Source of the DNA: an uncultured Verrucomicrobiae bacterium
Lineage (GTDB): Bacteria > Verrucomicrobiota > Verrucomicrobiia > Chthoniobacterales > JAFAMB01
Direction: 5' to 3'
DNA: 64,000 bases
Assembly: GCA_963762565.1 (NCBI GenBank)
Contig: CAVXLD010000002.1
Location: forward strand, 1-64,000
Numbering within the stretch: the first letter of the stretch is position 1; every line of letters starts with the position of its first letter. The position numbers and the translations under genes were made by a program. The notes under the pieces are model-generated. The model searched no databases. It was not told where the DNA came from and saw nothing but the letters and a program-made list of their open reading frames with translations. This document shows, in pieces, positions 1 to 19,344 of the stretch.

Positions 1-344
1 GAAAGCCAGGCAAGCAACCCAAAAGCGACATCCTCTTGACGGCGTTCCAGGCTGGGAACGAGTGACCAAAGCACAACTCGAGGCCGAGAACGCATGGCGC
101 TACCGGTTCGCGTTCCTGTACCCGAGAGTCGATAAGCGAGGCGCTCGCCAGTCACCCGCCTCGACGTTGCCGTTTATGTCGGCATAAGGAACGCGCAACC
201 CACACAGCAAGCGAGACGCGGGGCAACCCTAATACGGCTGATACATTGAAGTGACGCTTTAGGGGATAGGTAGCACCCTCTGCGGGGTTCGATGGGTCTT
301 CCTGACACGTCATCGACCGCGGTGACAGTCTGAGCGCGATATTT

Positions 345-782
345 TTGCACATTTTTGCGTGTTTTTTGGGGTCCGACGACGACACGGGAAGGCGGATTTT
401 GCCTACTGTGGCGGACTGGTTTTGGCCAGAAACGGAATTCTACGATGTGTCGATCCTCCGACGTCGACTCGACATTTTCGCCCTTTCCAGAGTGAAGACC
501 TACCCTTACACCGACATTTCAGACAATGAGACTCGCGACCTTTACCGCCAATACCGCGACACGATCACCGACCGCGACGGACTTGCCGAGGCACTTAATC
601 CAACCAACCGCGTCTCTGAGCTTACCATTCGCGGTCAGTTCGTAGCGGCTAACAAGAACCCCCTGCGGTACGCCGTCGATCACAATCTCTCATGCTATTC
701 GAATTACAAGTGGGCGATTAACAAAGAGTTCTTCTCTCTCTTGATTAATCTGCCGTCCGACGATTGGAGACCGCAGAATTAG
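345..782 (+). CDS. Hypothetical protein (start uncertain)
   Basis: 145 aa ORF with protein-like composition; no motif recognised. Confidence 0.4.
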   Translation: MHIFACFLGSDDDTGRRILPTVADWFWPETEFYDVSILRRRLDIFALSRVKTYPYTDISDNETRDLYRQYRDTITDRDGLAEALNPTNRVSELTIRGQFVAANKNPLRYAVDHNLSCYSNYKWAINKEFFSLLINLPSDDWRPQN

Positions 783-1012
783 CGCCCAGATAATTCACTA
801 AAGCCGTCGTCAGAGACTGTCGCTCGCTGTGTCCGTGTCGAGGAACTGTCCTATTGACACAGAGCGTACCAGGTCGTTTCTTTCGAAGTCGCTCAGAGCG
901 CCTTGACTAAGGCATTCCTTCTGACCCCTTGCAACACGGAGGTCCTGAAGCCTCAGAAATCTCGAAGCAGGTCGTTTGGCGACGAATCGTCCTAAACCCC
1001 TCGGGAGAACCA

Positions 1013-2024
1013 ATGAAAATCCGCTCAGTAGTCGCCCTAATGGGATTGGCAATCAGCTTTGCTGTGCCAGCCTTTGCCCAACACCCGCCGCACGCAGGAC
1101 ACTTCGTGACCTCGACCCGCCGGGCTCAACGTTTACCGTGCCTTCGGCCATTACCGCGGCGGGAGTGGTCCTCGGATCTGCCAGCGATTCAAGCGGTGCG
1201 CAGCGCGGCTTCCTGCGCAATGCTGACGGCAGCTTCACTACGTTCGACCCGCCGGGCTCCACACTCACCACGGCTACAGCCATCAATCCCGCGGGAACGC
1301 TCACTGGGGCCTACAACGACGCGGCGGGCGTGACCCACGGCTTCATGCGAACCGCAGGGGGGGCCTTCACCAGCTTCGACGCGCCGAGCGGTGTCATACT
1401 CAACAGCATCTACCAAATTGACGGCGCTCCGCCAAGCATCAACCCATCGGGGGCGATCGCAGGAACGTACTCCGTTTATATCCCGAGCTCACCGAGCACG
1501 GCTTCCTGCGCGAGAGGAACGGCACCCTCACCACGATCGATGTCCCCGGCTCGACATTCACCGAAGTCCTAGCGATCAACCCGGCGGGAACCCTTACAGG
1601 AGATTTCAATACCACGACCGTCCTCTTCCATGGTCTGCGGCTTGACGGGACCTGCATCACGACTAATTTTCCCGGCATCCCCGTCTGCATCAATCCGGCG
1701 GGTACGACCGCAGGAAATTACGTTGACGCAAGTAACGTGCGCATGGCTTCGTGCGGGCCGCGAACGGAACCTAACCACTTTCGACATCCCTGGCTCCCAA
1801 TATCTCCAAGTCTACGCGATTAACCCCGCAGGCACGCTCACGGGATACTATGCCACCCCCACTTTCTACGGCTTCCTGCTGGCTCCCAACGGGCCCTCAC
1901 CACGATCGATGTGCCAGGCTCCACTGGGACGGCAGGCGCGGCTATCAACCCGGCCGGCACAGTCGCGGGAATCTTTTTCGACGCGGCGGGCGTGACCCAC
2001 GGCTTCTTGTTTTTCACAGACTGA
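1013..2024 (+). CDS. Secreted repeat protein, HAF-like/beta-propeller-type repeats; several frameshifts
   Basis: Signal peptide MKIRSVVALMGLAISFAVPAFAQ, then repeats like TTFDPPGS..T.A.AINPAG.LTG.Y.DAAGVTHGF spread over three frames; ends GFLFFTD*. Confidence 0.75.
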
Positions 2025-2128
2025 GCAGGGCGCGACACTTCCACCCCTGGTAGAAAACTGCCGGTCCTCTTTTCACGTCATCGGTCGCGGGTGGCTTACA
2101 CAGCCTTCGCCTTAGCTCGCCAACGCGC

Positions 2129-2746
2129 TTGGCGCTCATTGGATGCCTTGCGGACGCGTTCAGTTGCTCGGGCGACAGTGAAGCGCAGGCGATTGTGGAT
2201 CGATGGAGGTTTGACTGGCTTGACCGGCTCAGCACCACACGCGCCACCATCAGCATCGTTCTTACCGGCGAGGCATGCCTCGAATTGCCTGGAAGCTTCC
2301 GAGCCTCTCTACGTTCCAGCTGGCGAACGGTTGGCTCGACAGGTTCGTCACTCACGGCAACGTTCAACGAAGCCAAGGCGATGCTCAGTGCTAATTCTCG
2401 CGGCCTTGAATCGATGACGCTTTGGTCGTTTCCTGACCTTCGCGGTAATGCCGAACATCTCAGCGATAAAGCGGAAGTGTCCCAAAGTCTTCGAGTCGAT
2501 CTGGTCTCCAGTGAGGTAATCGAGAAGAAAGTTAATAATGCCGTCTCGGCGTTCCTGACTGAGGCGAATTTCCTCCTTGCTATGCGGATCACTCACTACT
2601 TCCGCGCAATGTCAGCTAATAATGCGGTAAGAGTTGACACTCTTGTTGGTGGTATGAGTCAAGCACTCAGCACGATTAACCAGCTGGCAGTTGAAGCGGA
2701 GAGAGATCCGCGCACCGTCGAGCTCACGCTTACACGAAACGATTAA
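2129..2746 (+). CDS. Hypothetical protein
   Basis: 205 aa ORF; no motif recognised. Confidence 0.55.
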   Translation: MALIGCLADAFSCSGDSEAQAIVDRWRFDWLDRLSTTRATISIVLTGEACLELPGSFRASLRSSWRTVGSTGSSLTATFNEAKAMLSANSRGLESMTLWSFPDLRGNAEHLSDKAEVSQSLRVDLVSSEVIEKKVNNAVSAFLTEANFLLAMRITHYFRAMSANNAVRVDTLVGGMSQALSTINQLAVEAERDPRTVELTLTRND

Positions 2747-2878
2747 CCTCTTTGCACAGTTGCATAGCGCAAGACGACCGCAGTCTCTCTATTCCAGGGA
2801 TGAGGCAAAGAAGATACTCGCCGAAGCGCTCCGCGAAGCTGCCGAGAAGTACTCAAACTCCTAACAACGAAAGAAGGC

Positions 2879-3502
2879 ATGGAACAAGAAGCATATACGA
2901 TCACGCGGCACGATGTTACGAATAACAAGGTCGAGACGCGAACGATCACCCCGCTACCCCAACCAGAGCAACGTTTTGCCAAACCGGAAACGCCCACGGT
3001 CGAAGAATTACGCGAAGCGGTCAACGACCTCGTCGCAGATATCGAAGGAGCCGGATCCAACTATGAAACCGTGTCGGCTGATTTGGACAGCTTTTATGCT
3101 TCTCACAAAGCTTTGGAGAAGCGAATCTCTGAGCTAAGAGCAGAACTCACACAGGCTGAGCAGGAGTTAAGCGGCCTACGTTTGGAGGGCTCACCCGCGG
3201 AAGGCTACAAGCGGTTTATCGTCGAGGCAGAGACAAAGGTCTCGGGAATTGCGCGGCAACTGATCGACAGATTTTCCACCGATCGAGCACGCGATAAGTT
3301 CGACACCGAATTTTCAAGACTGTCTCCAACGACGCAAAAAGACTTGCAGATCTCGATCCGGTTGAAACTGGAGCGATTTGCTTCGCAGTTCTACGCCAAG
3401 TTAGGGCAGCGGAATTTCAACGCGAGCATTGAACAGGTTAAGAGCCGAGCCTCCGAGCTCCTCCGCGACCTTCAAACGATCCTTGCAGAGAATTTCAAAT
3501 GA
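2879..3502 (+). CDS. Hypothetical coiled-coil protein
   Basis: 207 aa; purine-rich RBS (GAAGG) before ATG; helical heptads (LEKRISELRAELTQAEQEL). Confidence 0.75.
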   Translation: MEQEAYTITRHDVTNNKVETRTITPLPQPEQRFAKPETPTVEELREAVNDLVADIEGAGSNYETVSADLDSFYASHKALEKRISELRAELTQAEQELSGLRLEGSPAEGYKRFIVEAETKVSGIARQLIDRFSTDRARDKFDTEFSRLSPTTQKDLQISIRLKLERFASQFYAKLGQRNFNASIEQVKSRASELLRDLQTILAENFK

Positions 3503-3788
3503 ATAGCCACTCACGATTAGATCTACTATCAAAGTCAATGGCACGAGCTGCCAAGCGCGCGGAAACGTCGCAAAGTCTCGCCTGCCCCCACTGTGGGGAG
3601 CCTCTACCCGAGGGATGGCGCCCGATGACGTAACTGGCGTCAGCGATGATAACCAGGACGAGGACAACGAAGGCGATAACGCGGATGGAGCCGATCAGGA
3701 CGTTGCCGACTACGACAACCGGCGGATTACTCGCTTGAATAATCTGGCTAAGAGCTTGGCGGCAGCAACAGAAAGAGCAAAGAGATAA
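3499..3788 (+). CDS. Small acidic protein with CPHC motif; one apparent frameshift near 3620
   Basis: ATGA overlap with previous stop; MNSHSRLDLL...ACPHCGEPLPEGW, then DDVTGVSDDNQDED...TERAKR* in the next frame. Confidence 0.5.
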
Positions 3789-3971
3789 TTTAACTTTGTC
3801 GGCATGGCGTCCGTCGAGATGGCGGAACCGCTACAGTCATAGCGAATGCAACACCGACACAACTGCCAGCGGCATGATGTTCGCAGATAGAGGCGGAATA
3901 GGCACTTCTAAGCCGTTTGAAACACGCTGGCGACTTTTTTATAAGCCTAACCTAACGTACAGGACCGGGCG

Positions 3972-4511
3972 TCAGTGATTGGTGCAATAACCCCATGAGA
4001 TCGCTCCGTGGTTCACGCCAAACAATTCTCCATTGAAGCACTGAACGAATGTTCCATACCGCGCGTTAATCGTTATGGTGCGAACTGTTTCTCCCTCATC
4101 TCCCACGTTGGAAAGTATAAGGTAATTACTGGTTTTCGATACAACGGTCCACGTTTCATTTGTGATGGTTTCCAAGCCACCTCCTGCGATGATTAAATCC
4201 GCAGTTTTGTCGTGCAGGGTGATTTTCCAGACGCTGGGAGCTTCATCGGGCGTAATATCTGCTCGCTCTAGAATCTCTGAATCCTTGTATAAAATCTCCT
4301 TTTTTTCGTATCCAGCAACGGAGTAGGTCTGAAAGACACATGTTATAGGCCGATCAAAAGAAATCGGATCTTTCTGGCGCTGAACGTATGGTCCTTTGAA
4401 TTGATACTTCGGTCGATCTAGGTCGGAGGTATCTCCGCAAGCCCGAGGTGAAATCTCAGGCGTGATCGCTAATCCAAGGATCATGGTAAGAATGTAGAGG
4501 AGGTATTTCAT
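3972..4511 (-). CDS. Exported hypothetical protein
   Basis: Signal-like start MKYLLYILTMILGLAI inside the 324 aa ORF, which is an artefactual fusion. Confidence 0.6.
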   Translation of the reverse strand: MKYLLYILTMILGLAITPEISPRACGDTSDLDRPKYQFKGPYVQRQKDPISFDRPITCVFQTYSVAGYEKKEILYKDSEILERADITPDEAPSVWKITLHDKTADLIIAGGGLETITNETWTVVSKTSNYLILSNVGDEGETVRTITINARYGTFVQCFNGELFGVNHGAISWGYCTNH

Positions 4512-4569
4512 TGTAGCGTCAGATGCGAGGAAGAGACCATGGCGACCGTCTGCCGAAGCAAGTCTTTGA

Positions 4570-4995
4570 CTAAAGCCACTGATCAAGACCACGGTCGCCC
4601 TGTCAGTGTGGTGACGAGCGATGACCGTCGTGCCGGTAACGGTTGCACCTGCTCCCATCGGCGTGATCGTGCCATTGGTGAATGCTCCAACAGCTTCGGA
4701 GCTTTTGCCGTGTGATTCTACTAATACGGCGTCAGCGCCAAGTTTCTTGGCGGAATTTGCCGCATCCTCTACCGCGTCTGAAAACCGGCCGTGGCTAGTT
4801 TCCTCGAGAAATCCGACGACTGCGTAGGCTCTGGACGGGTATCCGTAATAAACCGGTACAGCGTACTGAGAATCGACGAATGCGCCAGGAGAGGTCGGCC
4901 ACTTTATCTTGTTGTCCGACATAAGGATGAAATTCGTGAGACGCACACGCGCAAAGGAGGAATAGGCACGCGCACAGGAGGGAGAACGATTTCAT
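4570..4995 (-). CDS. Lipoprotein, frameshifted
   Basis: MKSFSLLCACLFLLCAC lipobox; continues in another frame with AANSAKKLGADAVLV. Confidence 0.6.
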
Positions 4996-5193
4996 GATAA
5001 TGATTGCGCAAGTCGTCCTAGCAGACTTTCTTCATGGCGACGAGAGGAAATCAAAGATGGGGCAGAAAGCGAAAAGGCGACCACCTTTCGATGACCGCCC
5101 TTTGTTGCTTCGTTGCCTTGCGCGTGTTGCTATTCCTTACATATCGTCAAGAAAGCATTGACGTCGAGCGGAGCGCGGCAATGTCTGTGCTGG

Positions 5194-5552
5194 TTATTTG
5201 TTTGTTGGCGGGTAGTTTTTCAGGATGCCGTCTGGCGCTGCTTTGTCGTCCTCCACTTGCTTAGTGAAAGACTTAATGAATCCGACCATAAAATCGGCCA
5301 GATCTTGCGATTTAATCTTGTCCTGAAGCGCGTAGGCAGCAGCCAATCCGGCTATAAAATGGTGATCCGCGACCGTGTCGACGTTGAAAACCTTTGCGCG
5401 AAGAAAATCAGGCATACTGAAGAACGCGGAGAATCCCTCTGCGTCCCCCTTAGAGACGGCGGCATCGGGATTGAAGCAATTTCTGGCGGCATGTCGCCAG
5501 CGCTTGCAAAAGATGCCGTAAGCAGCGCGGCAGCTAGTAATAGTCGTTTCAT
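5194..5552 (-). CDS. Exported hypothetical protein, frameshifted
   Basis: Signal peptide MKRLLLAAALLTASFASA; joins ORF 5194..5574 near 5445. Confidence 0.6.
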
Positions 5553-5585
5553 TGGTTGGAGGTGAGTCTGCCAATTTCCAGGCTG

Positions 5586-5911
5586 TTACTGGTTGCCGTA
5601 AATGATCATATGCACTTCATGGTTGGGCGCGTAACAGACTTGGCCGTGATAGCGAAGGGTGTCGACACCATCCCAGCCGATATCGACCACGTAGACGGTT
5701 TCCCCTGGCTTAATGACGGCCAGCACGCCTTGCTTGTATTCAGCGCTTATGCCGTCCTTGTCGCCGTCATTGATCATCTGATCTAGGTTCTTGGCCTCGT
5801 CCTTCGTAGCGGCGACTATCAAGGGTTCTCGAGGACGATCTTATCCGAGGTTCCGGCAGTAGCAGAGATGGCTAGAGTGGCGAGGACAATTACTAAGAAC
5901 GTTTTCTTCAT
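5586..5911 (-). CDS. Exported hypothetical protein, frameshifted
   Basis: MKKTFLVIVLATLAISATAG signal (ATG 5911); joins ORF 5586..5822. Confidence 0.6.
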
Positions 5912-6212
5912 TTGTTGGATTCGCTAGCGTGGATTGGCGAGTTAAGCAGAAAAGGCGATAGCGATCAATAACTAGGAGAGTGCCTACCCTTTCGACGCGC
6001 CAACCCAAATGCTTCACCGCATCAGCTTTCGTAATCGTTCCGTGGTAGTGCCGGACCGGTACTCCTCGAACTCCTCTTTCGAGATCTTGTACACCTCGAA
6101 GTTGTCTCTCGGTAAGCCGGTAATCTCGCTGGCATCGGCATGCGCCCGGACGGCGCTGTCCCCTACGGTGATCGCGCTAGCGGAGAAGTAGAGCTTAATT
6201 CTGTTTCCGATT

Positions 6213-6830
6213 CTAAGTTTCCGAAGGAGGATTTCTGCTGACTCCCTCGCGAATCCTTGTCAGATGAATGGATAATTTAAACAGAAACAGATAAAAGCCA
6301 TAGTTGCTAAGTGTAAATAAGCGCCCTTGTAGAACCGAAGCCAGATCGATGGCACTTAGATCACAGTTATTTATACGATCAAGCATGGCGATTCCTTCGC
6401 TGCCAAGCCTCTGGTTTTCAGGAAGGTAAAACATGTTCGATATCTTCTGCTGACGAATAGCCGCTATATGATCGCTTAACCCTGGAGTTCCCTCCGAACT
6501 GAGCATATTTTCGTAGGCGGAAAGACGAATAATCGGGCAGTAAATTAAGCACGCCCCTAGTTTCCGTTCGTTTTCGGGCGAGACGTCACAGGTATTCGAT
6601 AACACCATGACACGAGCTCGGCTCAACGTGTTTGCTGGCAAATCTCCAGTTGGTAGATCGGATAGACCATCCCCCTGGAATATCGTTCTTTCGTTCTCCA
6701 GATACGAAGTGTAGATCCTCGAATCAATGTTCGCCGGGAACTGTGTAAATTCGCTAAAAAGCGCCGTGCTTGCTGGAGCAGAGAGATACTGAGGTAGATG
6801 TCTCTGAATGTCCTCCAGCAATTCCGACAT
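6213..6830 (-). CDS. Uncharacterised protein, possibly a PemK/MazF-like toxin
   Basis: Intact 205 aa ORF, RBS GAGG; motifs IFQGD...VMVLSNTCD...CPI...FYLP; 3 nt from upstream gene. Confidence 0.7.
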   Translation of the reverse strand: MSELLEDIQRHLPQYLSAPASTALFSEFTQFPANIDSRIYTSYLENERTIFQGDGLSDLPTGDLPANTLSRARVMVLSNTCDVSPENERKLGACLIYCPIIRLSAYENMLSSEGTPGLSDHIAAIRQQKISNMFYLPENQRLGSEGIAMLDRINNCDLSAIDLASVLQGRLFTLSNYGFYLFLFKLSIHLTRIREGVSRNPPSET

Positions 6831-6833
6831 ACC

Positions 6834-7133
6834 TCATAGCAGTTCTGAAAACCGACGATTCAACAAATCGGCTATTTGCGGCGGCAAGTCTTCGGTGTTC
6901 TCCAAAAGTTTTTTCCCAAAGACCTGAAGGACTGAGAGTTGAATGGTTGTCTCCATGTAGATGTTGGCTGTGTAAAACACGTACCCTTGGCCGGATACGG
7001 TGGTGGCGAGTGTATAATAAGCATGTATCCGTAAGGTCCCTGCGTCTGGAACGAGTCCAGGTCCAGTCAACGCGGCTAAATCGTCCGGCGTCGTGGCGAC
7101 TTGATAAGGTGCGCTAAGTGGTTGAGACATCAT
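6834..7133 (-). CDS. Small protein (99 aa), middle gene of the cassette
   Basis: ATG overlaps the upstream gene end; C-terminal FGKKLLENTEDLPPQIADLLNRRFSELL helix. Confidence 0.65.
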   Translation of the reverse strand: MMSQPLSAPYQVATTPDDLAALTGPGLVPDAGTLRIHAYYTLATTVSGQGYVFYTANIYMETTIQLSVLQVFGKKLLENTEDLPPQIADLLNRRFSELL

Positions 7134-7883
7134 ATTCAGGGTGAAATTCGTCGAGGAAATCAGGATTGAGCAAACCAAAGAACAGTTGCTTTTCTGCGGT
7201 GTAAGCAACTTCGAGGAATTCCCTAATTTGCCTATCAAGGGTGCTGTTGTTTGGCGTTGTGAAACAATCAATATCTATCACAGACCCCGTCGCGACCTGT
7301 CCGGTTACGTTATTGGTTACGAGCACGTCCTTTCCGACCTGAAGGATTACCTTCAAAGTGTTCCAATCAAGAATCGTTTTGAAGAACGTTTCCCTCCCGC
7401 TAATGGATTGGTTCTGGATAGAAAAAGAAAGCACCAGCCTGCTCAAGACGTCCCGCGGGAAAAAATTTACTGTATCTCAGCCCGAACCGACCTGGATTGG
7501 CTATCAGTTCTGTTTGGAGGACCTTGTCGATGATTTCGATAAACTTCGGAAACATCGCATTCCAACCCGGATACGCTCCCTTTATCGCAACAGAAACACT
7601 CCGTGGACCCACGAGCATGACAAACCTTTCCCCTTCCAGCCGGTAATGTGCTTGGAAAAGTAGAGTGGGGTTCGCCTGTATTGTTGCCTCAGGCATCGCT
7701 GCCAAAGGCAGGGTGGTAACGCCGGGAAACTCTGGCCGTAGTTTTTCGATATACCATTCCTAGCACAGCCTGAGATGGAACGTTTGAGACAAAGCGAACC
7801 TCGAAGGGGCTGTCTGTATCTGGGCATGGATACGATATTTTTGGGAGCCGATCGGGAATTCGGATCGGGTAGGTGTCAGCCAT
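7114..7883 (-). CDS. TIGR04255-family-like protein, split by frameshifts
   Basis: Pieces LPKI.PCP...FEVRF, YPGW..MFP, RFGLRY, GSVIDID, EKQLFFGLL..FL.EFHPEY match my recollection of the family. Confidence 0.75.
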
Positions 7884-7982
7884 TGAATCCATATCTGCCC
7901 TGATTTGAAACGGTTTGTCAATGGCGGCGTCAATGGCGGCGGACTGCTTTCAGTTCCGCGCCGCCCGCGCGCGCACTAACCC

Positions 7983-9120
7983 TTAGCTTTTCGGCACAAG
8001 CGCCCAAAACTTCTCTGCCTCTTCTGCGGTCATGTGGCGGTAGTAATGCCTGCCAGATCATCTTAAGATCCTTCTGACCAAGCGCCAACATGGTCTTAGT
8101 TGCGTCACCATGCTTCGCCATGTGCGCAGAAGCGAACGTGTGCCTAAAGCCATCCTTTAACCACGTCACATTAGCTTTCTCGACAAGGTCGGCGCGTTTG
8201 CGTGCGAGCGTCGACGCGGAGAACGGGAACACTCGACCAGCGGCATCTTTTGGCCGGACGGCACGCAACCACGCCACAGCATTTGCGGAAAGGTCGACCG
8301 TCCGGCGTTCCCGCGTCTTTGATGTGTCAGCACGCACCACCAGATGAGGCTCTGGCGCGTCAAGGTGGATATCCGCCCACTTGATGCTGAATGCCTCGTT
8401 CTCTGGTCGCAGACCGGCGAAGCAGCACGCCACGACGAACGACGCGAAATCCGCGTCATTGGTGCGGACCCACTCCAGGATCGTTGTGACTTCGTTGTCG
8501 ACGGTATAGATCGAAACTTCACCTTTCTTGCTGCCCGGACAGGTCGAGACGGTCGCCGGGATTCGATTGAAGCCAACCCTTTTTGACGGCGTGATTTCCG
8601 GACCGTGCGGAGCCGATTGATTCGAAGGTCGCGAGTCGCCGGAGCGGAGCCTGTCAAGGCGGCCTCGAGCTCATCGGCGGTAACGTCGACAACCGATCGC
8701 ACCATCAAGTGCTCAACCTTGGCCTTGGTGTGAGCGAGGGAGGCGAGGTAATCCGCCGACAACCGCTTGCGTGAGGCCAGGAATGAGCTCCCAAACCTCT
8801 CCAAGGCTCTTCGATGCGGTCCGGCGAGCGTGGTCTGCCAGAAAGCTATTTACGGCAACCAAGAGTCCAATACCGATCGGCTCGAGGAGTTCGAATGCCT
8901 TAACGCATTCAGCCATCTGGTGCGGCTTCAGTCTGTAGATCAGATCGCCGAAGGACTTTTGGCCGAATTGTAGCGTCAAGGCGTGGTGATCCGCGTCATC
9001 CTTCGTCTCGAAAAACAATTGCTGCCGCTTCCCGTCCTGTGCCATCGACGCGGGAACGTTTAGACGCCACGGTCGCTTCCTTCCGTCTACTTTGACCGGC
9101 TCAAGTTCAGGGGTTCTCAT
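7983..9120 (-). CDS. Tyrosine recombinase/integrase, frameshifted in this sequence
   Basis: FAGLRPE (Arg I), SKT (Lys), DGFRHTFAS (Arg II), then HYYRH...EAEKFW in the adjacent frame. Confidence 0.9.
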
Positions 9121-9277
9121 TCCACAAAAGGCTAACAAATCATCCGCTATTTAAGCAACAAAGTAATGGTGACTAAGTCACCGAATAGCTTACAAATCGT
9201 TACCAATTGTTTCCAATTCTTTCCTATTGCTTCCCATTCTACTCGAGAGAAACGGGCATCATCCCAAGGACGGCTAT

Positions 9278-9323
9278 TTCCTTGCCAAGGAAGATGTCGC
9301 GAGTTCGAGTCTCGTCACCCGCT
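9278..9323 (+). tRNA. 3' fragment of tRNA-Gly(GCC), the att core; not a complete tRNA
   Basis: TTCC-TTGCCAA-GGAA anticodon arm, GCGAG-TTCGAGT-CTCGT T arm and CACCCGCT acceptor strand; no 5' acceptor strand or D arm upstream. Confidence 0.9.
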
Positions 9324-9414
9324 TTCGCCAAACTCGTTGACGGCTCATACCCAAAGGGCGAAAGCGTCGCGCCGGAGTCCCGCTGATAGGGACGAAGGCG
9401 GACTGGTAACCAAG

Positions 9415-9522
9415 ATGCATTACGTCTACATCCTCGAATCGATCTCTACGCCGGCACATTTTTATATCGGCTACACCCAAGATTTACGTGACCCAGTCCG
9501 TAAACTCGTAACCCGGTATTGA
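9415..9522 (+). pseudogene. Truncated GIY-YIG nuclease
   Basis: MHYVYILES...FYIGYTQDL, stop after 35 aa. Confidence 0.75.
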
Positions 9523-9545
9523 TACAATTAATTAGAAAAGCGATC

Positions 9546-9577
9546 CGGCGGCTGCCATAGGCGGCCGCCGTTTTCTT
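9546..9577 (+). terminator. Intrinsic terminator
   Basis: CGGCGGCTGCC-ATA-GGCGGCCGCCG followed by TTTTCTT. Confidence 0.65.
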
Positions 9578-9733
9578 GCGCACTGCCGGGACTGCCTACC
9601 CGGTAATCTTTTTCGAGCCCAGACCTAGCGCGTAGGATCTCCACCTCGGTCCCCGACCGATTTCTGGCCCAAAAAGAGCTTTTCCCGGCACGAAACTTGA
9701 TTAACTGTTACACCTTCTCACCACCCGACACCT

Positions 9734-10336
9734 ATGGCCATACTTGATCGATTCTTCGGACCAACCCGCGATGAAATTTGGGAAAAACTCGCTGATGAAG
9801 TAGGGGGAGACTTCTATGATGGCGGATTTTGGCTCGGCCAAAGTAAGGTAAGAGCCAAGGTGGGAGACTGGATTGTCACCTTAGACACCTACAAAGATCA
9901 CCAAAATGTGACTTATACCCGGCTGCGTGCTCCTTTTGTAAACAAAGACGGCTTCATTTTTACCGTTTTCCGGGTAGGCAGTTTCGAAGATCAACACGCA
10001 GCTGACGACTCGGATGTACAACTCGGCGTCGCGGACTTCGACGACGCGTTTATAGTCAAAAGCAATAATCTCGGACAAGCGAAGAAGTTATTTTCGGTCC
10101 AAAAGATCCGAGACCTGCTGTGCGACCAGCCTAACGTCTTTTTCAACGCCAGTAAACACAGCGGTTGGTATTCGGCTGATTTTCCGGAAGGGGTCGGCGA
10201 ACTGCTATTCCAGGCCCGCGGCGAGATCAAAAACCTTGCCCGATTAAAGCACTTATATGAACTGTTTGGCGAGACGCTCGACCAGCTTTGCCAAATTGGT
10301 TCAGCTACCCATGACAAGACGGGCGTTGTGATCTAA
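9734..10336 (+). CDS. Conserved hypothetical protein (DUF3137-like)
   Basis: 200 aa; FGP..EIW..L, YTRLRAPF, FDDAFIVKSN. Confidence 0.7.
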   Translation: MAILDRFFGPTRDEIWEKLADEVGGDFYDGGFWLGQSKVRAKVGDWIVTLDTYKDHQNVTYTRLRAPFVNKDGFIFTVFRVGSFEDQHAADDSDVQLGVADFDDAFIVKSNNLGQAKKLFSVQKIRDLLCDQPNVFFNASKHSGWYSADFPEGVGELLFQARGEIKNLARLKHLYELFGETLDQLCQIGSATHDKTGVVI

Positions 10337-10392
10337 ACCCAACCAATTTCACCACAGAGACCGTATAGTCTCCCTCCCGTCCCCAGACTAAA

Positions 10393-10923
10393 ATGATACG
10401 CCGTCTTCTTGCGTTTGTGTGCCTCTTGGCCGGGTTCAGCGAACTGGCGCCACAGGCGGGGGCGGCCATTTGGAAATCATCGGAATACTATTGCCAGGTC
10501 AACCTCCCCGACGGCACCTATGTCCACCAGTGGTATGCCATGCTGCCGGCAAACGAAGGCGGTGTCTTGGCTGGAGCACGTCGCCAGGACTACAGCGGAA
10601 TCGTTTATATCGGGGTGGTGGATGAAAACGACAAGCCTCATTTCGTACTCGATGAAAAGAGCGTGGAGCAGCTCGACAAATCGTTCTTCGGTCCCGGGCT
10701 AGGATTTCTCGACAAGACGCAAAAAATCACCCAGCACGGCGTTGAGGGCTTTCGCTTGATTGGAAGGCACCGTTTTAACGGCCGCAACTACGCGATGGTG
10801 GTTGATATGTTTTTTTACCACGGGCTCGTTTATCAGGTCGCCGGCCTAACGACCGCTTTCGATAATCCGTTACAGGACAACGATGTGCGCGGGTTCATGA
10901 ACAGCTTTTATATTCTGCCGTAG
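10393..10923 (+). CDS. Exported hypothetical protein
   Basis: Signal peptide; 176 aa. Confidence 0.75.
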   Translation: MIRRLLAFVCLLAGFSELAPQAGAAIWKSSEYYCQVNLPDGTYVHQWYAMLPANEGGVLAGARRQDYSGIVYIGVVDENDKPHFVLDEKSVEQLDKSFFGPGLGFLDKTQKITQHGVEGFRLIGRHRFNGRNYAMVVDMFFYHGLVYQVAGLTTAFDNPLQDNDVRGFMNSFYILP

Positions 10924-10924
10924 A

Positions 10925-11078
10925 GCCGGGACTCGCCTGAGGCTCGTCCCGGAATAGCAAATAGCAGATAGCAAATAGCAAATCGTCTCCTCACCGAGCG
11001 CTGGGCTCCAGGGGGGCTCCCTTTGCTATGTGCTATTTTCTATTTGCTATTCCGGGCGAGCCTCAGGCGAGTCCCGGC
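10925..11078. repeat. Long inverted repeat with (AATAGCA)n/(TGCTATT)n arms; probable bidirectional terminator
   Basis: ~59 nt nearly perfectly complementary arms between convergent genes. Confidence 0.85.
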
Positions 11079-12118
11079 CGCCCTAACGCAACTTTCACGT
11101 CTTCCACAAACTCCCTTACATCCTCTTCGGTGGTATCCCACGAGCACATCAATCGGGCGGCTCGGTCAGGGCCCACGTCATTATAAAACCGCCAACCTCG
11201 TTCATGGAGCTTGCGGACGGCCTCATCGGGGACTTTGGCAAACACCGCGTTGCCTTCCCTTGGATAAAGGATCTCAACTTGCGGCAGTCCCCGAATTCCC
11301 TGCTCCAGTCGTTCCGCCATCTGGTTGGCATGCCTGGCTCGTTCAAGCCATCGACCGTCCTTGAGGTAACCAAGCCACGGCGCCGACAAGAATCGCATTT
11401 TCGAGGCAAGCTGGCCGCTTTGTTTTAGTCGATATTCGAAGGCAGCAGCCGCGGAGGGGTCAAAGAAAACAATGGCCTCTCCAAAGCCGAGCCCGTTCTT
11501 GGTCCCACCAAAACTCAGGACATCGACTCCCGATCGCCAAGTCAAGTCAGCGGGAGAACAGCCAATCGAGGCGACCGCGTTACCAAACCGGGCTCCATCC
11601 ACATGAACAATTAATCCAAGCCGTTTGGCGGCATCGGCAATCGTCCGGACTTCTTCGGGCCGATAGATCGTGCCCAGTTCGGAAAGGTTGGTCAACGACA
11701 CGGCCCGCGGTAAAGAACCATGCACCGGGCGTTGCGACTTAACGATCTCAATCATCGCATCCGGATCGATCTTGCCATTGGGTCCGCTCACCGGGACAGC
11801 TTTAGCGCCAGCTACAAAGTGACCCAAAGCGTTGCATTCATCCGTCTCCAAATGCGAATGCTCGTGGGCAATCACTGCATGATAACTGTGCAGAAAGGCG
11901 CTCAGGGCCAGGCAATTCGCGCTGGTGCCATTTGAGACGAAGAAAACCGCACATTGCTGCTCAAAGATCTCGCTGACCGCTGCTTGGGCACGTTCGGTGT
12001 AATCATCGTGGCCATAGCCAACAACGTGTCCCTGGTTAGCCTCGGTAATAGCCGCTAGCACCTCGGGAGAGATCCCGGCATTATTGTCACTGGCGAAGTG
12101 GCGAGGTCTTTGAGTCAT
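11063..12118 (-). CDS. ltaE: Low-specificity L-threonine aldolase
   Basis: FASDN, YG.D.YT, NGTSAN, HVDGARFGNA, SFGGTKNG (PLP lysine). Confidence 0.92.
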   Translation of the reverse strand: MTQRPRHFASDNNAGISPEVLAAITEANQGHVVGYGHDDYTERAQAAVSEIFEQQCAVFFVSNGTSANCLALSAFLHSYHAVIAHEHSHLETDECNALGHFVAGAKAVPVSGPNGKIDPDAMIEIVKSQRPVHGSLPRAVSLTNLSELGTIYRPEEVRTIADAAKRLGLIVHVDGARFGNAVASIGCSPADLTWRSGVDVLSFGGTKNGLGFGEAIVFFDPSAAAAFEYRLKQSGQLASKMRFLSAPWLGYLKDGRWLERARHANQMAERLEQGIRGLPQVEILYPREGNAVFAKVPDEAVRKLHERGWRFYNDVGPDRAARLMCSWDTTEEDVREFVEDVKVALGRPGLA

Positions 12119-12159
12119 GAGAGTATAGGAGTTCAGGAGTTCGAGGAGTTCAAGCAGTT

Positions 12160-12370
12160 GGTAGGGCGAGGCTCCCGAACGGCCTGAACGGGTTCGCACA
12201 GCGCCAAGATTTTCCGGATTTGAATCGTGAGCAACACCAAGCCGTGTGCCGAGCCGGGGATTGCGCGCGGCCACGGCTCGGCGGGCGTTTCGACATCGCA
12301 AATCGTCCGTTCGGGAAAACGGAATTGCGTAGGGAATCCGTTTCAGGTCTTTCGGGAGCCTCGCCCTACC
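12160..12370. repeat. REP-doublet/MITE-like element, family A copy 1
   Basis: GGTAGGGCGAGGCTCCCGAA ... GCCGAGCCG ... CGGCTCGGC ... TTCGGGAGCCTCGCCCTACC. Confidence 0.9.
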
Positions 12371-12427
12371 TTCCCGAACCAAATCATTTGTGACCTCCTC
12401 GGCCTCATGTACGGTTGTGCAAAATCG

Positions 12428-12886
12428 ATGAAGGTTGAAAACCTCCGCAGTCCCTACGTTAAGACCGGCGGTCTCTATTATTTTGCCCGGATGATCGATA
12501 AGATCCGGCTCAACGCGGCTAACCTTCTGCCTGGCGATTACCAGCAGGTGCTAGGCTTGGGTTTCGATGGGAGAACTTGCCGATTTCTCAGGGTGGATTA
12601 CAACGAATTCACCGAACGCGTTCTCCAAGGAGGAACCGACGAAGAACTTTTGCAATGGTGTTTTACTCGAGGGCGAACACCCACGGATGAGGAAATCTCG
12701 ACGTGGAACGACTGGGTGCGAAAGAAAGGCTGGCGAGATGGGACTTCTGCCCGTTTGAAAGAACGATTAAAAGAAAGCGGATTCGAAGATCGGACCGACA
12801 TTGAAACCATGTTCGATTACCTCGACCTGGATGAAGGTCGCGACCCACGTCACCGTAACAGGGATTACAACGGAGAATACGAATGA
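12428..12886 (+). CDS. DUF5069-like protein
   Basis: LRSPY.K.GGL.YF.RMIDKIRL ... FDYLDLDEGR. Confidence 0.8.
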   Translation: MKVENLRSPYVKTGGLYYFARMIDKIRLNAANLLPGDYQQVLGLGFDGRTCRFLRVDYNEFTERVLQGGTDEELLQWCFTRGRTPTDEEISTWNDWVRKKGWRDGTSARLKERLKESGFEDRTDIETMFDYLDLDEGRDPRHRNRDYNGEYE

Positions 12887-13494
12887 AAGAAGAAATGATT
12901 TTGGTGGTTCGGCGAGCGCTCTTTGATTCGCTCGGCTCATTTCAAGGTTTTTCATCGAACGTGGATCATTATCTTCCATCGCTGCTGGATCGAGAGAACA
13001 ACTTTTTCGCAGCACGTTCCTCAGCGGAAACTGATCCGAGCCTAAAACAAATAATCCCTTACGCGCTGATCGCCGCACGCGGTCAAATCCTTCGGTATCG
13101 GCGCGGCAAAAGCTCGGGCGAACAACGGTTAGTCGCTAAATACTCGATCGGTATCGGCGGCCACATGAACGATCAGGATGAAGGCTTATTCGCGCTTGAT
13201 CACCAAGCGTATCTCGCCGGAGTCCAACGCGAGATTGATGAGGAAGTCCAAATCTCAGCTCCGCGATCACATCGGATCGTCGGCTTGATTAACGACGATT
13301 CGACCGAGGTCGGCCAAGTGCACCTGGGCGTAGTCCACGTCCTAGAGCTGGATGCGCCCGAGGCGGTTAAGCGCGAAAGCGCCATCACACAGGTGGAATT
13401 CTTGCCGCCGGGCCAATTGTCGGCCGAACGCGAGCTGCTAGAGGGTTGGTCCCAGATCTGCCTGGATCATCTGACTGAGATACTGGGGGCGTAG
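12883..13494 (+). CDS. NUDIX-family predicted phosphoesterase
   Basis: AE.DPS.KQIIPY, SIGIGGH.N, REIDEEV, VGQVHLG. Confidence 0.85.
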   Translation: MKEEMILVVRRALFDSLGSFQGFSSNVDHYLPSLLDRENNFFAARSSAETDPSLKQIIPYALIAARGQILRYRRGKSSGEQRLVAKYSIGIGGHMNDQDEGLFALDHQAYLAGVQREIDEEVQISAPRSHRIVGLINDDSTEVGQVHLGVVHVLELDAPEAVKRESAITQVEFLPPGQLSAERELLEGWSQICLDHLTEILGA

Positions 13495-13648
13495 TGGCAC
13501 GCGGAGTAGCAGTCGGTGAGGGGCTCTGCGAAAGGATAGGACTTATGGGACCTATACGACTTATAGGTCCGGTCCTATAAGTCCTATAGGCTATAGGTCC
13601 CATCCGTTCGCAGAGCCCAGCGCGTTCCACCCACGCCCACACGCGCCG

Positions 13649-14428
13649 TCACGTGTCTGCGTGCCACCGAGTGCCAGACAGAAACTGTAAAAGCCGCTCG
13701 CTCCTCGGCCGCTCCAGCACTTCGCCAGGTGGGCCTTCTTCTTCGATTCTACCCTCAGACAAAAACACAACCCGACTTGAGACATGCCGCGCGAAATTAA
13801 TTTCGTGTGTCACGATGATCATGGTCCGGCCTTCGGTTGCTAGCGCCTGGATTACCTTTAGAACTTCGCCGACCAGTTCAGGGTCTAGGGCAGAGGTCGG
13901 TTCATCGAATAACATGACTTCGGGGTCCATGGTGAGCGCTCTGGCAATGGCAACTCGCTGTTGTTGGCCACCTGAAAGTTGGGCGGGATATTTGTTCTCC
14001 ACCGCGTCGCTCAGACCAACCTTGGCCAAGTTCGCGCGGGCTTTCGCTATTGCGTCCGGTTTCGGTACTTTTTTTACATGTATCGGCGCCTCGATAATGT
14101 TCTGCAATACGTTCAGGTGCGACCAAAGATTAAAACTTTGAAACACCATCGCCACTTTGGTTCGCAGTTGTTGCAAAGCTCGTGGGTTTTCCGCCCTTAA
14201 CATTCCGTGTTTACCCGGGCGAAGTTTAATCTCCTGATCATCTAACCAGATCTTTCCTTGGTTCGGTTGTTCCAACAGATTGATGCAGCGCAGGAAGGTA
14301 CTTTTGCCGGAGCCGCTCGAGCCCAGAATGCTGATCACCTCTCCCGGGCGTGCAGCCAAGCTAACTCCTTTCAACACCTCGGTTGCGCCATAGCGTTTAT
14401 GAATATTTTCAGCCGCCAGTTTGTTCAT
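13649..14428 (-). CDS. hisP: His/Lys/Arg/Orn ABC transporter ATPase
   Basis: [41 protein letters not shown]. Confidence 0.9.
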
Positions 14429-14449
14429 GAACCGGGAATCACTTGAACC

Positions 14450-15157
14450 TCAGGTCGTCGAGAGATGTCTTAGCCATTTCCGTTCCGCTTTTCGGAACAA
14501 CGAAATAATAGTCAGCGATAAACAAGCATAAAGAATCGCAGCAATACCAAAGGCTGGGAAGGGCAGGTAATAATCGGCGTTGGCGTCTCGAGCAACCTTC
14601 AGAATATCCGGAACCGTCGCGGTAGAAGCCAGAGTGGTGGCATGGAGCATCAGAAGAACTTCGTTACTATAGGCCGGTAAAGCCCGGCGCAAAGCAGACG
14701 GCAAAACAATCCGAAGGTATAGACTTATCCCGACGAACCCGAGAGAGCGAGCTGCTTCCATTTCACCGCGAGGCGTCGCTTTCACCGCTCCAGCAAGTAG
14801 TTCGGTCGTGTACGCACATGTGTTTACGGTGAAGGCGAGAATCGTGCAGTTTAGCGCATCTTTAAAGAACGGGCCGAGACCCGGCGTATTCCTAACAAAA
14901 TCGAGCCCATAAAGAGCGGAATAGATGATCAATAACTGCACGTAAAGCGGTGTCCCGCGAAACACGAACGTAAAGACCCAAATAGGCCAACGCATCCAGG
15001 AAGGACCGGCCGCTTTGACGACGGATAAGGGCAAGGAGAGTATGAACCCCATCACACAGGACGCGACCGTTAACCATAAGGTCATCGCCAAACCAGAAAT
15101 ATGGTTCGGCGAACCCCACAGGAACGGCTGCCAATATTGTTTGATTAGGTCAATCAT
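14450..15157 (-). CDS. hisM: Polar amino acid ABC permease
   Basis: FRGTPLYVQL, EAA loop, LPAYSNEV.LMLHAT. Confidence 0.85.
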   Translation of the reverse strand: MIDLIKQYWQPFLWGSPNHISGLAMTLWLTVASCVMGFILSLPLSVVKAAGPSWMRWPIWVFTFVFRGTPLYVQLLIIYSALYGLDFVRNTPGLGPFFKDALNCTILAFTVNTCAYTTELLAGAVKATPRGEMEAARSLGFVGISLYLRIVLPSALRRALPAYSNEVLLMLHATTLASTATVPDILKVARDANADYYLPFPAFGIAAILYACLSLTIISLFRKAERKWLRHLSTT

Positions 15158-15852
15158 CCAGCCATTCGCTCGAAGCCAGCAGCATACCGCTTTTCGAGAT
15201 AGGCAAACACAAAGTTAGAAACGGTTGTCAACAGCAGATAGAGCAAGGCGACTATCGATAGATAAAAAAGGACGTGCGCACCTCCCGGCCAACTTGAGCC
15301 CTTGATGGCCGCCTCGGCAGCATAAATCACTTCGTGAAGATTGATAATCGAGACCAGTGCAGTGGCTTTGAGGATCACTTGCCAATTGTTACTGATACCA
15401 GGCAACGCAAACCGCATCATCTGCGGAAATAAGATTCGGGAAAAGATCTGCCACGCCGTCAAACCAAACGCTGCGGCAGCTTCCAATTGGCCACGGGGAA
15501 CTGCTTTCACCGCGCCCCTGATCGTCTCAGTAAAGTAAGCGCCGTAAATAAAGCCTAGTACAGAGACACCGGCGAGGAACGGATCGATATCAATCTGTGG
15601 TTGGCCCAATAGGTCGGTGATTGCGTTTACCCAGTTTTGAACGCTGTAATACAGGAGGAGCATGAGCACCAGATCCGGAACGGCGCGGATCAAGGTGGTA
15701 TATGCAGATCCAGCGATGGCCAACCAAGGATTCGACGAGAGCTTGGCAGCTGCGCCGAGCAGCCCGAGAACGAAAGCAATCAAAAGGGAAACAGCCGCCA
15801 GTTCAATGGTGACCACCGTTCCCGCCAGAAGCTGTTGCAAATATCCGCTCAC
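15154..15852 (-). CDS. hisQ: Polar amino acid ABC permease
   Basis: YTTLIRAVPDLVLMLL, RFALPG..NNWQV.LKATALVS. Confidence 0.85.
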   Translation of the reverse strand: MSGYLQQLLAGTVVTIELAAVSLLIAFVLGLLGAAAKLSSNPWLAIAGSAYTTLIRAVPDLVLMLLLYYSVQNWVNAITDLLGQPQIDIDPFLAGVSVLGFIYGAYFTETIRGAVKAVPRGQLEAAAAFGLTAWQIFSRILFPQMMRFALPGISNNWQVILKATALVSIINLHEVIYAAEAAIKGSSWPGGAHVLFYLSIVALLYLLLTTVSNFVFAYLEKRYAAGFERMAG

Positions 15853-15856
15853 GGGA

Positions 15857-16094
15857 TCCGTTTGGCGTTTGGCGTTCGGCGTTTGGCGTTTGGCGTTCGG
15901 CGTTCGGCGTTTGGCGTTCGGCGTTCGGCGTTTGGCGTTCGACCTGGCGCTGTCTCCCGGCCGCTTAAGGAATAGCGGTCTTTGGAAAGTGGATGAACGC
16001 CACTCTTCGACGAAAGAAGTCCGGACTCCGGATAGCTCGATGTGGCACTAGAAACGCCCAAACGCCGAACGCCAAACGCCAAACGCCAAACGGA
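15857..16094. repeat. Inverted heptamer arrays (GGCGTTY)n ... (RAACGCC)n
   Basis: ~11 units at 15860-15940 and ~5 inverted units at 16052-16092. Confidence 0.9.
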
Positions 16095-16095
16095 A

Positions 16096-16878
16096 CTATT
16101 TTGGGGCAACATCAAAATCGAAGTACTTTTTCTCTAGCTCCTGATACGTCCCGTCTTGGTGGATCGCTTTCAGCGCTTGATTTAATGCAGCTTTCAAATC
16201 TTGATCGGATTTGCGCAAGCCAATGGCTGAACCCTTCCCCAGGATTTCGTCGTCAACTACGTCAGGCCCCGCGAAAGCAAAACCCTCACCCTGCGGACTC
16301 TTCAGAAAACCCTGTTGCGCCTGGATTTCATCTTGGAGCGCAGAGTCGAGTCTGCCCGATCTGAGGTCAGCGTAGACTTGGTCCTGGTTCTGATAAGAGA
16401 CAATGGTCACGCCCTTTGGCTCCCAATAAGTCTTAGCGTACGTTTCCTGGACGGTTCCCTGCTCGACTCCAACTGACTTTCCCTTAAGCGACTCGGGAGT
16501 CGGCAAAAGAGTGGATCCGGTTTTCGCCACCATTCTGGTTGGTGTGGCAAAAAGCATATCGGTGAAATCGATCTGCCTTTTTCTTTTCTCGGTCTCCGCT
16601 AAGGACGAAAGAATCCCGTCGATCTTGCGGGCTTGCAGGGCCGGTATCATGCCATCGAAATCATTCTCTACCCAGACGGCCTTAGCGCCCATCTTTGCGC
16701 AAAGAGCGTTGCCCAGATCGATATCGAACCCGACTAATTCGCCGCTCGGCGCTTTTGATTCAAATGGGGCGTAGCTGGGATCTACGCCGAACCGAACGGT
16801 TTTCCAGTCTTTTGCCGGGGAGAGCGAACACAAAAAAACAAGCAGTGGGAGGATCCAAAGGAAACGGTTTTTCATCAA
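16096..16878 (-). CDS. Basic amino acid ABC substrate-binding protein (HisJ/ArgT type)
   Basis: Signal peptide; YAPFE, GFDIDL, FDGMIPAL, VGVEQGT.QE. Confidence 0.9.
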   Translation of the reverse strand: MMKNRFLWILPLLVFLCSLSPAKDWKTVRFGVDPSYAPFESKAPSGELVGFDIDLGNALCAKMGAKAVWVENDFDGMIPALQARKIDGILSSLAETEKRKRQIDFTDMLFATPTRMVAKTGSTLLPTPESLKGKSVGVEQGTVQETYAKTYWEPKGVTIVSYQNQDQVYADLRSGRLDSALQDEIQAQQGFLKSPQGEGFAFAGPDVVDDEILGKGSAIGLRKSDQDLKAALNQALKAIHQDGTYQELEKKYFDFDVAPK

Positions 16879-16943
16879 ATCTGCCGGAAAACGGCAACGC
16901 CGAACTATTTCTACCTAGGAGCGGAACTGCAAGGAGAATAAGG

Positions 16944-17048
16944 AGAATGACAAATGACGGATGACAGATGACAAATTGTCGCCTTTCGTCGCTGTATAGC
17001 TCCCCCGAGCTCCCAATCTGTCATTTGTCATCTGTAATCTGTCATTCT
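16944..17048. repeat. Inverted heptamer arrays (ATGACAR)n ... (YTGTCAT)n
   Basis: Four units per arm, complementary. Confidence 0.85.
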
Positions 17049-17198
17049 AATGCCCCACCCATAGCGGCGACCGGCCCCTATTACGCCCGCGGTCCGGATC
17101 AGGGTGAATCCCTGAATCATAAATTTGCCAGAATTTCTCTAAGTGTCCGTCCTAAGTGCGGCGGTCTCATTCGTCGAAGGTTTGAACTCGAGAATAAT

Positions 17199-17984: not shown

Positions 17985-18059
17985 ACAACGATTACGAAGC
18001 GCCACATCCATGGCGCCGCGCCCTCCTAGCTCCTAGATTCTAGCTCCTGGCTCCTGGCC

Positions 18060-18980: not shown

Positions 18981-19045
18981 GGTTAGGCATACAGAAGCCG
19001 TTTATAGCGGATTCTCCAGCAAATGATTGGGTAAGAATGATCTAC

Positions 19046-19308: not shown

Positions 19309-19344
19309 TTTTTTACGTTTTCCAAGCAACACAAAACGGTAAAC

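Follow-up and report, generated by a model that had tools for sequence, protein, structure and literature searches.

What is encoded by the trio of tightly packed genes that stands beside an integrase near the start of a contig from an uncultured Verrucomicrobiae bacterium, and does it belong to a system already named? The trio, here called the cassette, lies within the first 64,000 nucleotides of contig CAVXLD010000002.1 (GenBank assembly GCA_963762565.1), and "the window" denotes this whole stretch. A first-pass annotation had proposed the cassette as an undescribed anti-phage or toxin-antitoxin-chaperone (TAC)-like system, in which a TIGR04255-like protein (gene 1) would be a chaperone or sensor, a small protein (gene 2) the antitoxin, and the third protein (gene 3) a ribonuclease resembling PemK/MazF. 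We read the cassette, with moderate confidence, as a self-contained, horizontally mobile operon that would encode a tripartite module for toxin-antitoxin or defence functions, TAC-like but built around a third partner other than SecB. This reading draws on the conservation of the operon among distant relatives, the predicted fold of gene 3, and the presence of other toxin-type genes behind TIGR04255 elsewhere.

A conserved three-gene operon

The integrase gene and genes 1, 2 and 3 all lie on the minus strand, head to tail (Table 1). Gene 1 ends at 7114 and gene 2 already begins at 7133, an overlap of 20 nucleotides, and genes 2 and 3 are separated by 3 nucleotides. The tight coupling described in the first-pass annotation is thus borne out by the coordinates of the open reading frames (ORFs), as is the position directly downstream of an integrase. 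The cassette is also richer in AT than its flanks, as had been remarked: the windowed guanine-plus-cytosine content is 0.454–0.494 over 6251–7750, compared with 0.51–0.53 at 5001–6250 and 0.54–0.61 at 7751–8750. Gene 2, with 99 residues ending in KKLLENTEDLPPQIADLLNRRFSELL, and gene 3, an intact protein of 205 residues with the pattern FQGD...VMVLSNTCD, are present as described.

The assignment of gene 1 to TIGR04255 (a model of 252 positions) was put to a hidden Markov model (HMM) test. The middle piece of the gene (7400–7705) scores 35.9 bits, above the NCBIfam cut-off of 30, and the piece at 7114–7446 scores 27.3 bits; a profile search of the genome places TIGR04255 at 7418–7783 with 41 bits. 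Pieces of gene 1 also match phrog_5464, a PHROG family of unknown function (E-values 7.7e-8 and 1.1e-7). The family membership of the proposed protein of about 255 residues therefore stands, while its single ORF does not, as the gene is spread in the window over three frames (7689–7892, 7400–7705 and 7114–7446).

Table 1. Positions of the cassette genes and the adjoining integrase in the window
Feature	Position	Strand	Evidence and state
Tyrosine integrase of the island	7930..9138	-	PF00589 on piece 7930-8433, 28.7 bits (cut-off 27.1); three frames in the window
Gene 1, TIGR04255-family protein	7114..7892	-	NCBIfam TIGR04255 and phrog_5464; two +1 frameshifts in the window
Gene 2, 99-residue protein outside known families, proposed antitoxin/adaptor	6834..7133	-	ORF from ATG at 7133
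Gene 3, 205 residues, phrog_4575, predicted MazF/CcdB-like fold, proposed toxin/effector	6213..6830	-	Intact ORF

The same arrangement is found in distant relatives. With one genome searched per species, 108 gene 3 relatives were obtained and 80 loci kept, in 77 of which a script recognised the gene 3 ORF (L018, L020 and L075 were dropped under the ORF rule). The kept loci belong to the Verrucomicrobiota, Pseudomonadota, Desulfobacterota, Bacteroidota, Bacillota, Spirochaetota, Cyanobacteriota, Planctomycetota, Acidobacteriota and Bdellovibrionota, together with one contig labelled Methanococcoides. An ORF of about 100 residues lies immediately upstream of gene 3 in 74 of the 77 loci. A further ORF upstream of that is found in 70/77, and 68 of these 70 exceed the TIGR04255 cut-off, scoring 61–147 bits; those of L011 and L043 fall below it. 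The exceptions comprise three loci at a contig edge (L014, L041 and L083), L021, which has only 197 nucleotides upstream, and L053 and L080. Gene 2 overlaps gene 3 in 62 of 74 loci, by 4 nucleotides in 37 of them, and the largest gap is at most 19 nucleotides. Genes 1 and 2 overlap or lie no more than 30 nucleotides apart in 67 of 68. Recurrence of this arrangement in 74 of the 77 loci makes the cassette more than a chance neighbourhood, and the co-occurrence that the first-pass annotation had left to be checked is found.

At two loci, L039 (4531–5597) and L043 (4525–5609), the middle ORF is longer (153 and 159 residues), its C-terminal motif is kept, and TIGR04255 is not directly upstream; in L043 a pyrophosphatase gene lies upstream of the middle ORF. 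These two loci may represent a two-gene form of the system.

Mobile and accessory contexts

The cassette also lies in mobile or accessory places, among them two phages and a plasmid record. In Pseudomonas phage VW-6S the three genes lie between the CI repressor and the integrase, and in a 14,960-bp circular Phocaeicola plasmid record they follow just after a 445-residue ORF that is integrase-like by eye only. At locus L072 the cassette is directly beside an integrase. In Pseudomonas phage Dobby, a peduovirus, all three genes are directly beside the portal gene, a position that, by the P2 gene order, would be the variable locus next to cos. The P2 variable locus next to cos is described as a hotspot of anti-phage systems (Rousset et al., PMC9122126).

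The distribution of the genes is sporadic. A search of 40 related genomes (5 from the same genus, 19 from the same family, 16 from the same order) found gene 3 in none of them. TIGR04255 turned up in 9 of the 301 genomes searched within the phylum, and a set of 14 control genomes yielded none.

Predicted fold and conserved site of gene 3

Gene 3 matches phrog_4575 (E-value 7.7e-35), with residues 4–199 aligned to positions 6–206 of the 209-position profile; the function of this PHROG family is unknown. An AlphaFold2 model built from 41 sequences has a predicted local distance difference test score (pLDDT) of 82 and a predicted template-modelling score of 0.76. In a Foldseek search of this model against the PDB, all 24 listed rows were MazF-type toxins, with a best E-value of 9.5e-4 and target template-modelling (TM) scores of 0.63–0.73. 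VIA-align superposed gene 3 residues of about 48–195 on Staphylococcus aureus MazF (4mzm_A) with a Z score of 10.0 and a root-mean-square deviation of 3.3 over 113 of 115 residues. CcdB (Z 8.8) and Kid (Z 7.7) were also matched; 80 chains reached a Z of at least 8, and all 50 entries listed were MazF, Kid or CcdB. Residues 1–47 form an extra helical N-terminal part of lower model confidence, and gene 3 exceeds MazF in length by about 90 residues; this N-terminal extension is conserved.

Eleven residues are invariant in all 41 sequences, namely Q52, G53, D54, S78, N79, C81, D82, K185, S187, H189 and R192. On the model, gene 3 is thus predicted to have the MazF/CcdB toxin-superfamily fold with a different conserved site.

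Sequence searches place the family among no named proteins. NCBIfam gave zero matches for gene 3, and a search of its profile against PDB sequences gave only BstYI (E-value 0.58). Fused forms of 360–2000 residues were looked for and not found, which is weak evidence. A search of the genome with PF02452 (PemK) returned two other genes, gene 3 not being among them. At 90% clustering, the 555 relatives of gene 3 are all unnamed and none has a Pfam domain. A profile search of 1.84 billion proteins gave 983 representative clusters at an E-value of at most 0.001, and these offer plentiful material for testing.

The small middle protein

Gene 2 has zero matches in Pfam, NCBIfam, PADLOC and PHROGs. 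In alignments of the family, conservation is confined to about 35 C-terminal residues with the pattern FA..LL....D..P.........FWDL, and the N-terminal part is variable. A hydrophobic N-terminal segment of 15 residues (hydropathy of at least 1.5) is present in 51 of 71 members, whereas shuffled sequences give 14.4 on average and 21 at most. A membrane-like hydropathy threshold is reached by only 21 of the 71.

In the record of phage VW-6S (MF975720, locus L001), a 46-residue coding sequence at 3852–3992 labelled "XerC integrase" sits within the ORF of the gene 2 homologue (3675–3992, 105 residues). This label is probably a mis-annotation.

TIGR04255 as a constant partner of other cassettes

TIGR04255 genes are found in front of genes other than the gene 3 family. 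Eleven TIGR04255 loci of the phylum were inspected, and nine consist of TIGR04255, a middle ORF of 111–196 residues and a third ORF; L110 has a single downstream ORF of 238 residues, and L111 does not show a clear three-gene order. The third ORF is a PIN domain protein in L105 and L112 (E-values 4.4e-10 and 2.8e-11) and HEPN-like in L104 (E-value 5.4e-4; 20.5 bits, under the cut-off of 22). In L106 it belongs to the gene 3 family, and the middle ORF of that locus matches the gene 2 profile. The third ORFs of L005, L107, L108, L109 and L113 have no known family.

One of these cassettes, L005, is a second cassette in the same genome as the window (contig C10:41043–42933; L005 1387–3277). Its TIGR04255 gene is intact, with a score of 111.9 bits, and is followed by ORFs of 196 and 146 residues, both without Pfam matches. 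It lies just downstream of an integrase-like ORF of 176 residues (L005 177–707), and its 196-residue protein has a weak match to the PADLOC candidate model PDC-M32A (E-value 4.4e-5). A phage example is Sulfurimonas phage SNW-1 (OP810509, locus L103), in which TIGR04255 is followed by genes of 111 and 129 residues at 2471–3921, in the early or lysogeny region. The 129-residue protein of SNW-1 resembles the HEPN-like third gene of L104 by eye and has no Pfam match.

TIGR04255 cassettes thus combine one constant third partner with swappable toxin-type third genes, as in TAC logic. The TAC analogy gains support from this arrangement because TIGR04255 genes precede third genes of the PIN, HEPN-like and MazF-fold kinds.

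The structural part of the analogy, in which gene 1 would resemble SecB, fared less well. A model of the gene 1 homologue from L015 (pLDDT 93.8) is a two-lobed alpha/beta protein. Its fold matches include AdoMetDC and TBP, with low TM scores of 0.27–0.35, and a fold search of BFVD gave only TBP-like matches of low TM score. SecB is not among the fold matches listed for the gene 1 model, which are low-scoring throughout, and its absence by itself carries little weight. Judging from the model, assignment of gene 1 to a known fold, SecB included, is not supported. Among the clusters listed for gene 1 in the ESM Atlas, only TIGR04255 or hypothetical-protein ones appear. To our knowledge, the NCBI entry for TIGR04255 has for years described only a sporadically distributed family without a function. 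TIGR04255, CHP04255, IPR026349, phrog_4575 and phrog_5464 are named in no paper found among open main texts (supplements and non-open journals lay outside the search).

Proposed mechanism and alternatives

In the mechanism that we propose, the cassette would travel on integrative elements and temperate phages. The part of effector or toxin would fall to gene 3, a MazF/CcdB-type beta-barrel with a helical N-terminal part and a predicted site of its own made up of D54, S78-N79-x-C81-D82 and K185/S187/H189/R192. Gene 2 would be a neutralising adaptor that grips gene 3 through its conserved C-terminal helix region and is itself bound by gene 1 through a variable, mostly hydrophobic N-terminal segment. 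As the constant third partner, gene 1 would stabilise or control gene 2, and it could be the entry point of an infection signal. Once gene 2 ceased to function, gene 3 would be set free and growth would stop, with abortive phage defence or retention of the element as the outcome. The analysis itself shows the operon with its conservation and spread, the fold predicted for gene 3, the family of gene 1 and the exchange of third genes. Confidence in this mechanism is only moderate because the toxicity, the binding partners, the trigger and the phage defence are the inferred parts of it.

A broader proposal can be made tentatively, as something possible rather than probable. TIGR04255 could define a superfamily of immune or addiction modules, each of three genes, that has so far gone unnoticed. 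A constant, saddle-shaped guard of a small adaptor-antitoxin would in these modules be combined with interchangeable effectors (PIN, HEPN-like, the MazF-fold family of gene 3 and several of unknown family). The gene 3 family would then be a MazF-fold member that has lost the MazF site and carries a new active site, formed by an SNxCD loop and a K-x-S-x-H-x-x-R helix. Given such a new site, this member may act on a target other than that of MazF or CcdB.

If the mechanism is right, TIGR04255 gains a role as the constant partner of modular toxin-type cassettes on phages and islands, and a second, non-SecB solution to the toxin-antitoxin-chaperone logic would exist. It would also add new candidate anti-phage systems that current defence finders overlook, and a MazF/CcdB-fold protein with a different conserved site.

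Several observations weigh against the tripartite, TAC-like mechanism. The resemblance of gene 3 to PemK/MazF ribonucleases holds for the fold, as seen by both Foldseek and VIA-align, and not for the sequence: the Pfam PemK model (PF02452, gathering threshold 23.1 bits) misses gene 3, no Pfam family matches it at an E-value of 0.1 or below, and hhalign of gene 3 against 13 canonical PemK proteins gives a probability of 2.6%. In those 13 proteins R21, P22 and T44 are invariant, whereas the gene 3 columns aligned to the catalytic Arg and Thr of MazF hold A/T/S/G and I/V/F/L. In the low-confidence hhalign register, which may be off by one, the Arg-Pro and Thr of PemK face A72-R73 and I101 of gene 3, and the adjoining gene 3 columns are not invariant either (R73 is R/K in 32 of 41 sequences and position 102 is S/T in 21 of 41). 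A shared fold does not in itself show toxicity, and CcdB and MazF act on different targets. For gene 1, likeness to SecB was not found by sequence (only TIGR04255 in NCBIfam, and nothing relevant in Pfam), and the best fold match of its model is to guanidino kinases and McsB at Z 7.7–7.9, a level that the tool calls common for unmatched models. The gene 2 protein of the window is an outlier without the hydrophobic segment, its best 15-residue window reaching 0.78. The PADLOC, Pfam and NCBIfam libraries yield no function for the cassette. The second frameshift of gene 1 in the window (about 7455–7470) lies outside the cover of the contigs considered below, and the genome copy could still be broken.

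The flanks of the cassette in relatives, finally, are mostly ordinary or unknown genes. Neighbours were counted as the longest ORF within 2.6 kb per side and without a control set, hence the counts are not an enrichment test. The 55 upstream neighbours include four mobile-element genes and about three clear defence or toxin-antitoxin (TA) genes (HipA, the S subunit of a type I restriction-modification system, and GmrSD). Among the 69 downstream neighbours, about ten are related to defence, TA systems or phages (two DNA methylases, HEPN, MqsA, R.Pab1, Uma2, WYL, AAA_14/DUF4143, terminase and Peptidase_M78), and 36 have no family.

This scarcity of defence genes among the neighbours would suit a cassette that serves for addiction or stabilisation only, as a TA module that keeps an integrative element, prophage or plasmid through post-segregational killing without contributing to phage defence. 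Plasmid addiction is a classic role of toxins with the MazF/CcdB fold, and the cassette is found beside integrases (in the window and in L072), on a small circular plasmid record and on temperate phages. The cassette of Dobby, however, adjoins the portal gene, which by the P2 gene order would be the position of an anti-phage hotspot. Many TA systems serve both roles, and the present data do not separate them. We consider a role restricted to addiction unlikely, though it is the alternative that fares best.

It is less likely again that the cassette is not a toxin system at all. The gene 3 barrel would then be a non-toxic binding or enzymatic module, in which Q52, C81, D82 and H189 could form a thiol-type active site, and the three proteins would make a regulatory or modifying complex, for example in lysogeny control or superinfection exclusion. 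The replacement of the MazF catalytic residues by another invariant set, the extra length and conserved N-terminal extension of gene 3, and the position of the VW-6S cassette within the cI-int region would all be consistent with such a complex, and a sequence link of gene 3 to any toxin family was not found in NCBIfam, Pfam, PADLOC or PHROGs. Sister cassettes, on the other hand, have PIN and HEPN-like third genes, which are toxin-type ribonuclease domains, and three tightly coupled genes with a small one in the middle and a sporadic spread are in keeping with TA logic. The tripartite, TAC-like mechanism remains the reading that we prefer.

Frameshifts in the window

The frames of gene 1 are broken in the window by two frameshifts, both +1. 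The first falls in a run of five A near 7747, the second near 7455–7470. Three collinear tblastn segments in three frames together span residues 17–254 of the closest homologue (L008). The integrase is likewise split across three frames.

Logan contigs from four soil-metagenome runs of one study (X1–X4) were compared with the window over 6100–9300. Their depth is 2–6, the runs may include the source sample of the window itself, and their cover excludes 7178–7473, where the second frameshift of gene 1 falls. The window differs from the contigs by 12 single- or double-base indels, all within 7747–8790 and several of them common to two or three runs. In the covered parts of 6100–7177, which hold genes 2 and 3, there are zero indels, and the only differences within these two genes are two substitutions in gene 3. 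The contig of run X1 lacks the extra base at 7747. When the contig differences are applied, 7474–7926 becomes one open frame of 150 codons that aligns with residues 2–126 of the L015 homologue (44.8% identity, E-value 2e-41), and the integrase region reads through as a single frame of 386 codons.

The breaks in gene 1 and the integrase are probably assembly errors, because the contigs lack the indels at every covered site and the frames reopen. The compared stretch holds 12 indels as against 11 substitutions, several of which adjoin indels, and this ratio points to consensus errors in the assembly rather than decay. Since the frameshifts look like assembly errors, the copy of the cassette in this genome is probably intact. 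A decaying remnant, with true pseudogenes in place of gene 1 and the integrase and a cassette that has ceased to work in this genome, is very improbable: the fragmented frames of both genes and the second frameshift beyond the contig cover would fit it, and the contigs could be from a sister strain, but the reopened frames, the indels lying side by side with substitutions as a signature of consensus error, and the intact genes 2 and 3 all speak against it. As a practical matter, genes that look broken at this end of the contig most likely reflect assembly indels, and other frameshift calls in the genome need to be checked against reads.

Surroundings of the cassette

The start of the contig falls within the island. 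Between 345 and 5822 the ORFs lack Pfam matches, except for weak coiled-coil ones on 2879–3502, and housekeeping genes (a beta-eliminating lyase and an ABC transporter) are found from about 11000 on. An attachment or tRNA site was not found, as searches for tRNA genes and Rfam families in 1–20000 returned none. Promoter- and terminator-like sites are no commoner than in shuffles. Just past the integrase, the end of an ORF on the plus strand (9166–9522) resembles by eye the start of a GIY-YIG-type protein (YVYIL...FYIGYT), with no Pfam match; this ORF could be a truncated gene at the insertion site.

Comparison with known systems

The claim that the system is undescribed stands as far as it was searched. 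PADLOC 2.0 gave no relevant match for the proteins of the window or for five intact cassettes. Two weak matches to PDC models were obtained, one on the gene 3 homologue of Phocaeicola and one on the partner gene of the second cassette.

One likeness in gene content and position is to Rst_3HP of E. coli E1114, which is described as three genes without predicted domains that lie at the variable locus of P2-like phages and protect against P1 (PMC9122126). The cassette shares with it the three genes without predicted domains and, in Dobby, the P2-like locus. Identity of the two is improbable: the Rst_3HP proteins are each much longer and lack the motifs of the cassette in a by-eye reading of Table S2A, and no PADLOC model matches the cassette proteins, although the presence of Rst_3HP models in the PADLOC release used was not confirmed.

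In type II Gabija, a split MazF-like domain in GajC is described as the presumed effector of a validated anti-phage system (PMC13069673), a role similar to that proposed for gene 3. GajC is paired with the GajB helicase, and neither TIGR04255 nor a small middle gene is present; the cassette is not type II Gabija. A further parallel is Panacea (DUF4065), one domain that is reported in combination with many unrelated toxin domains (PMC8832971), much as TIGR04255 is combined with varied toxin-type partners. Panacea is itself the antitoxin of two-gene systems, however, whereas TIGR04255 is a third gene beside a separate small middle protein.

The MazEF, PemIK, Kid-Kis and CcdAB systems resemble the cassette in that gene 3 superposes on whole MazF chains and has a small gene directly upstream and overlapping. 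They differ in that gene 3 has no PF02452 match and no conserved catalytic Arg/Thr, and has 205 residues with an N-terminal extension. Gene 2 has no MazE- or AbrB-type DNA-binding domain recognisable with Pfam, and nearly every locus has a third gene.

TAC systems such as HigBA-SecB and CmdTAC are described as defending against phages (10.1101/2024.02.24.581848; PMC11618068). Like the cassette, they have three tightly coupled genes, combine a constant partner with varied toxins, and are found on mobile elements and phages. The constant partner of the cassette is TIGR04255, a two-lobed alpha/beta protein of about 240 residues, and not a SecB-like chaperone, and its genes run from the third partner through the small protein to the toxin-like protein. 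Conservation in the small protein of the cassette lies at the C-terminus, and its N-terminus is variable and hydrophobic; this hydrophobic segment is the only candidate for a chaperone-addiction (ChAD) element, the antitoxin part that the third protein binds in TAC systems. The cassette thus stands outside PemK, having neither the HMM match nor the catalytic pair, and outside TAC, having no SecB, yet it probably works like a TAC system.

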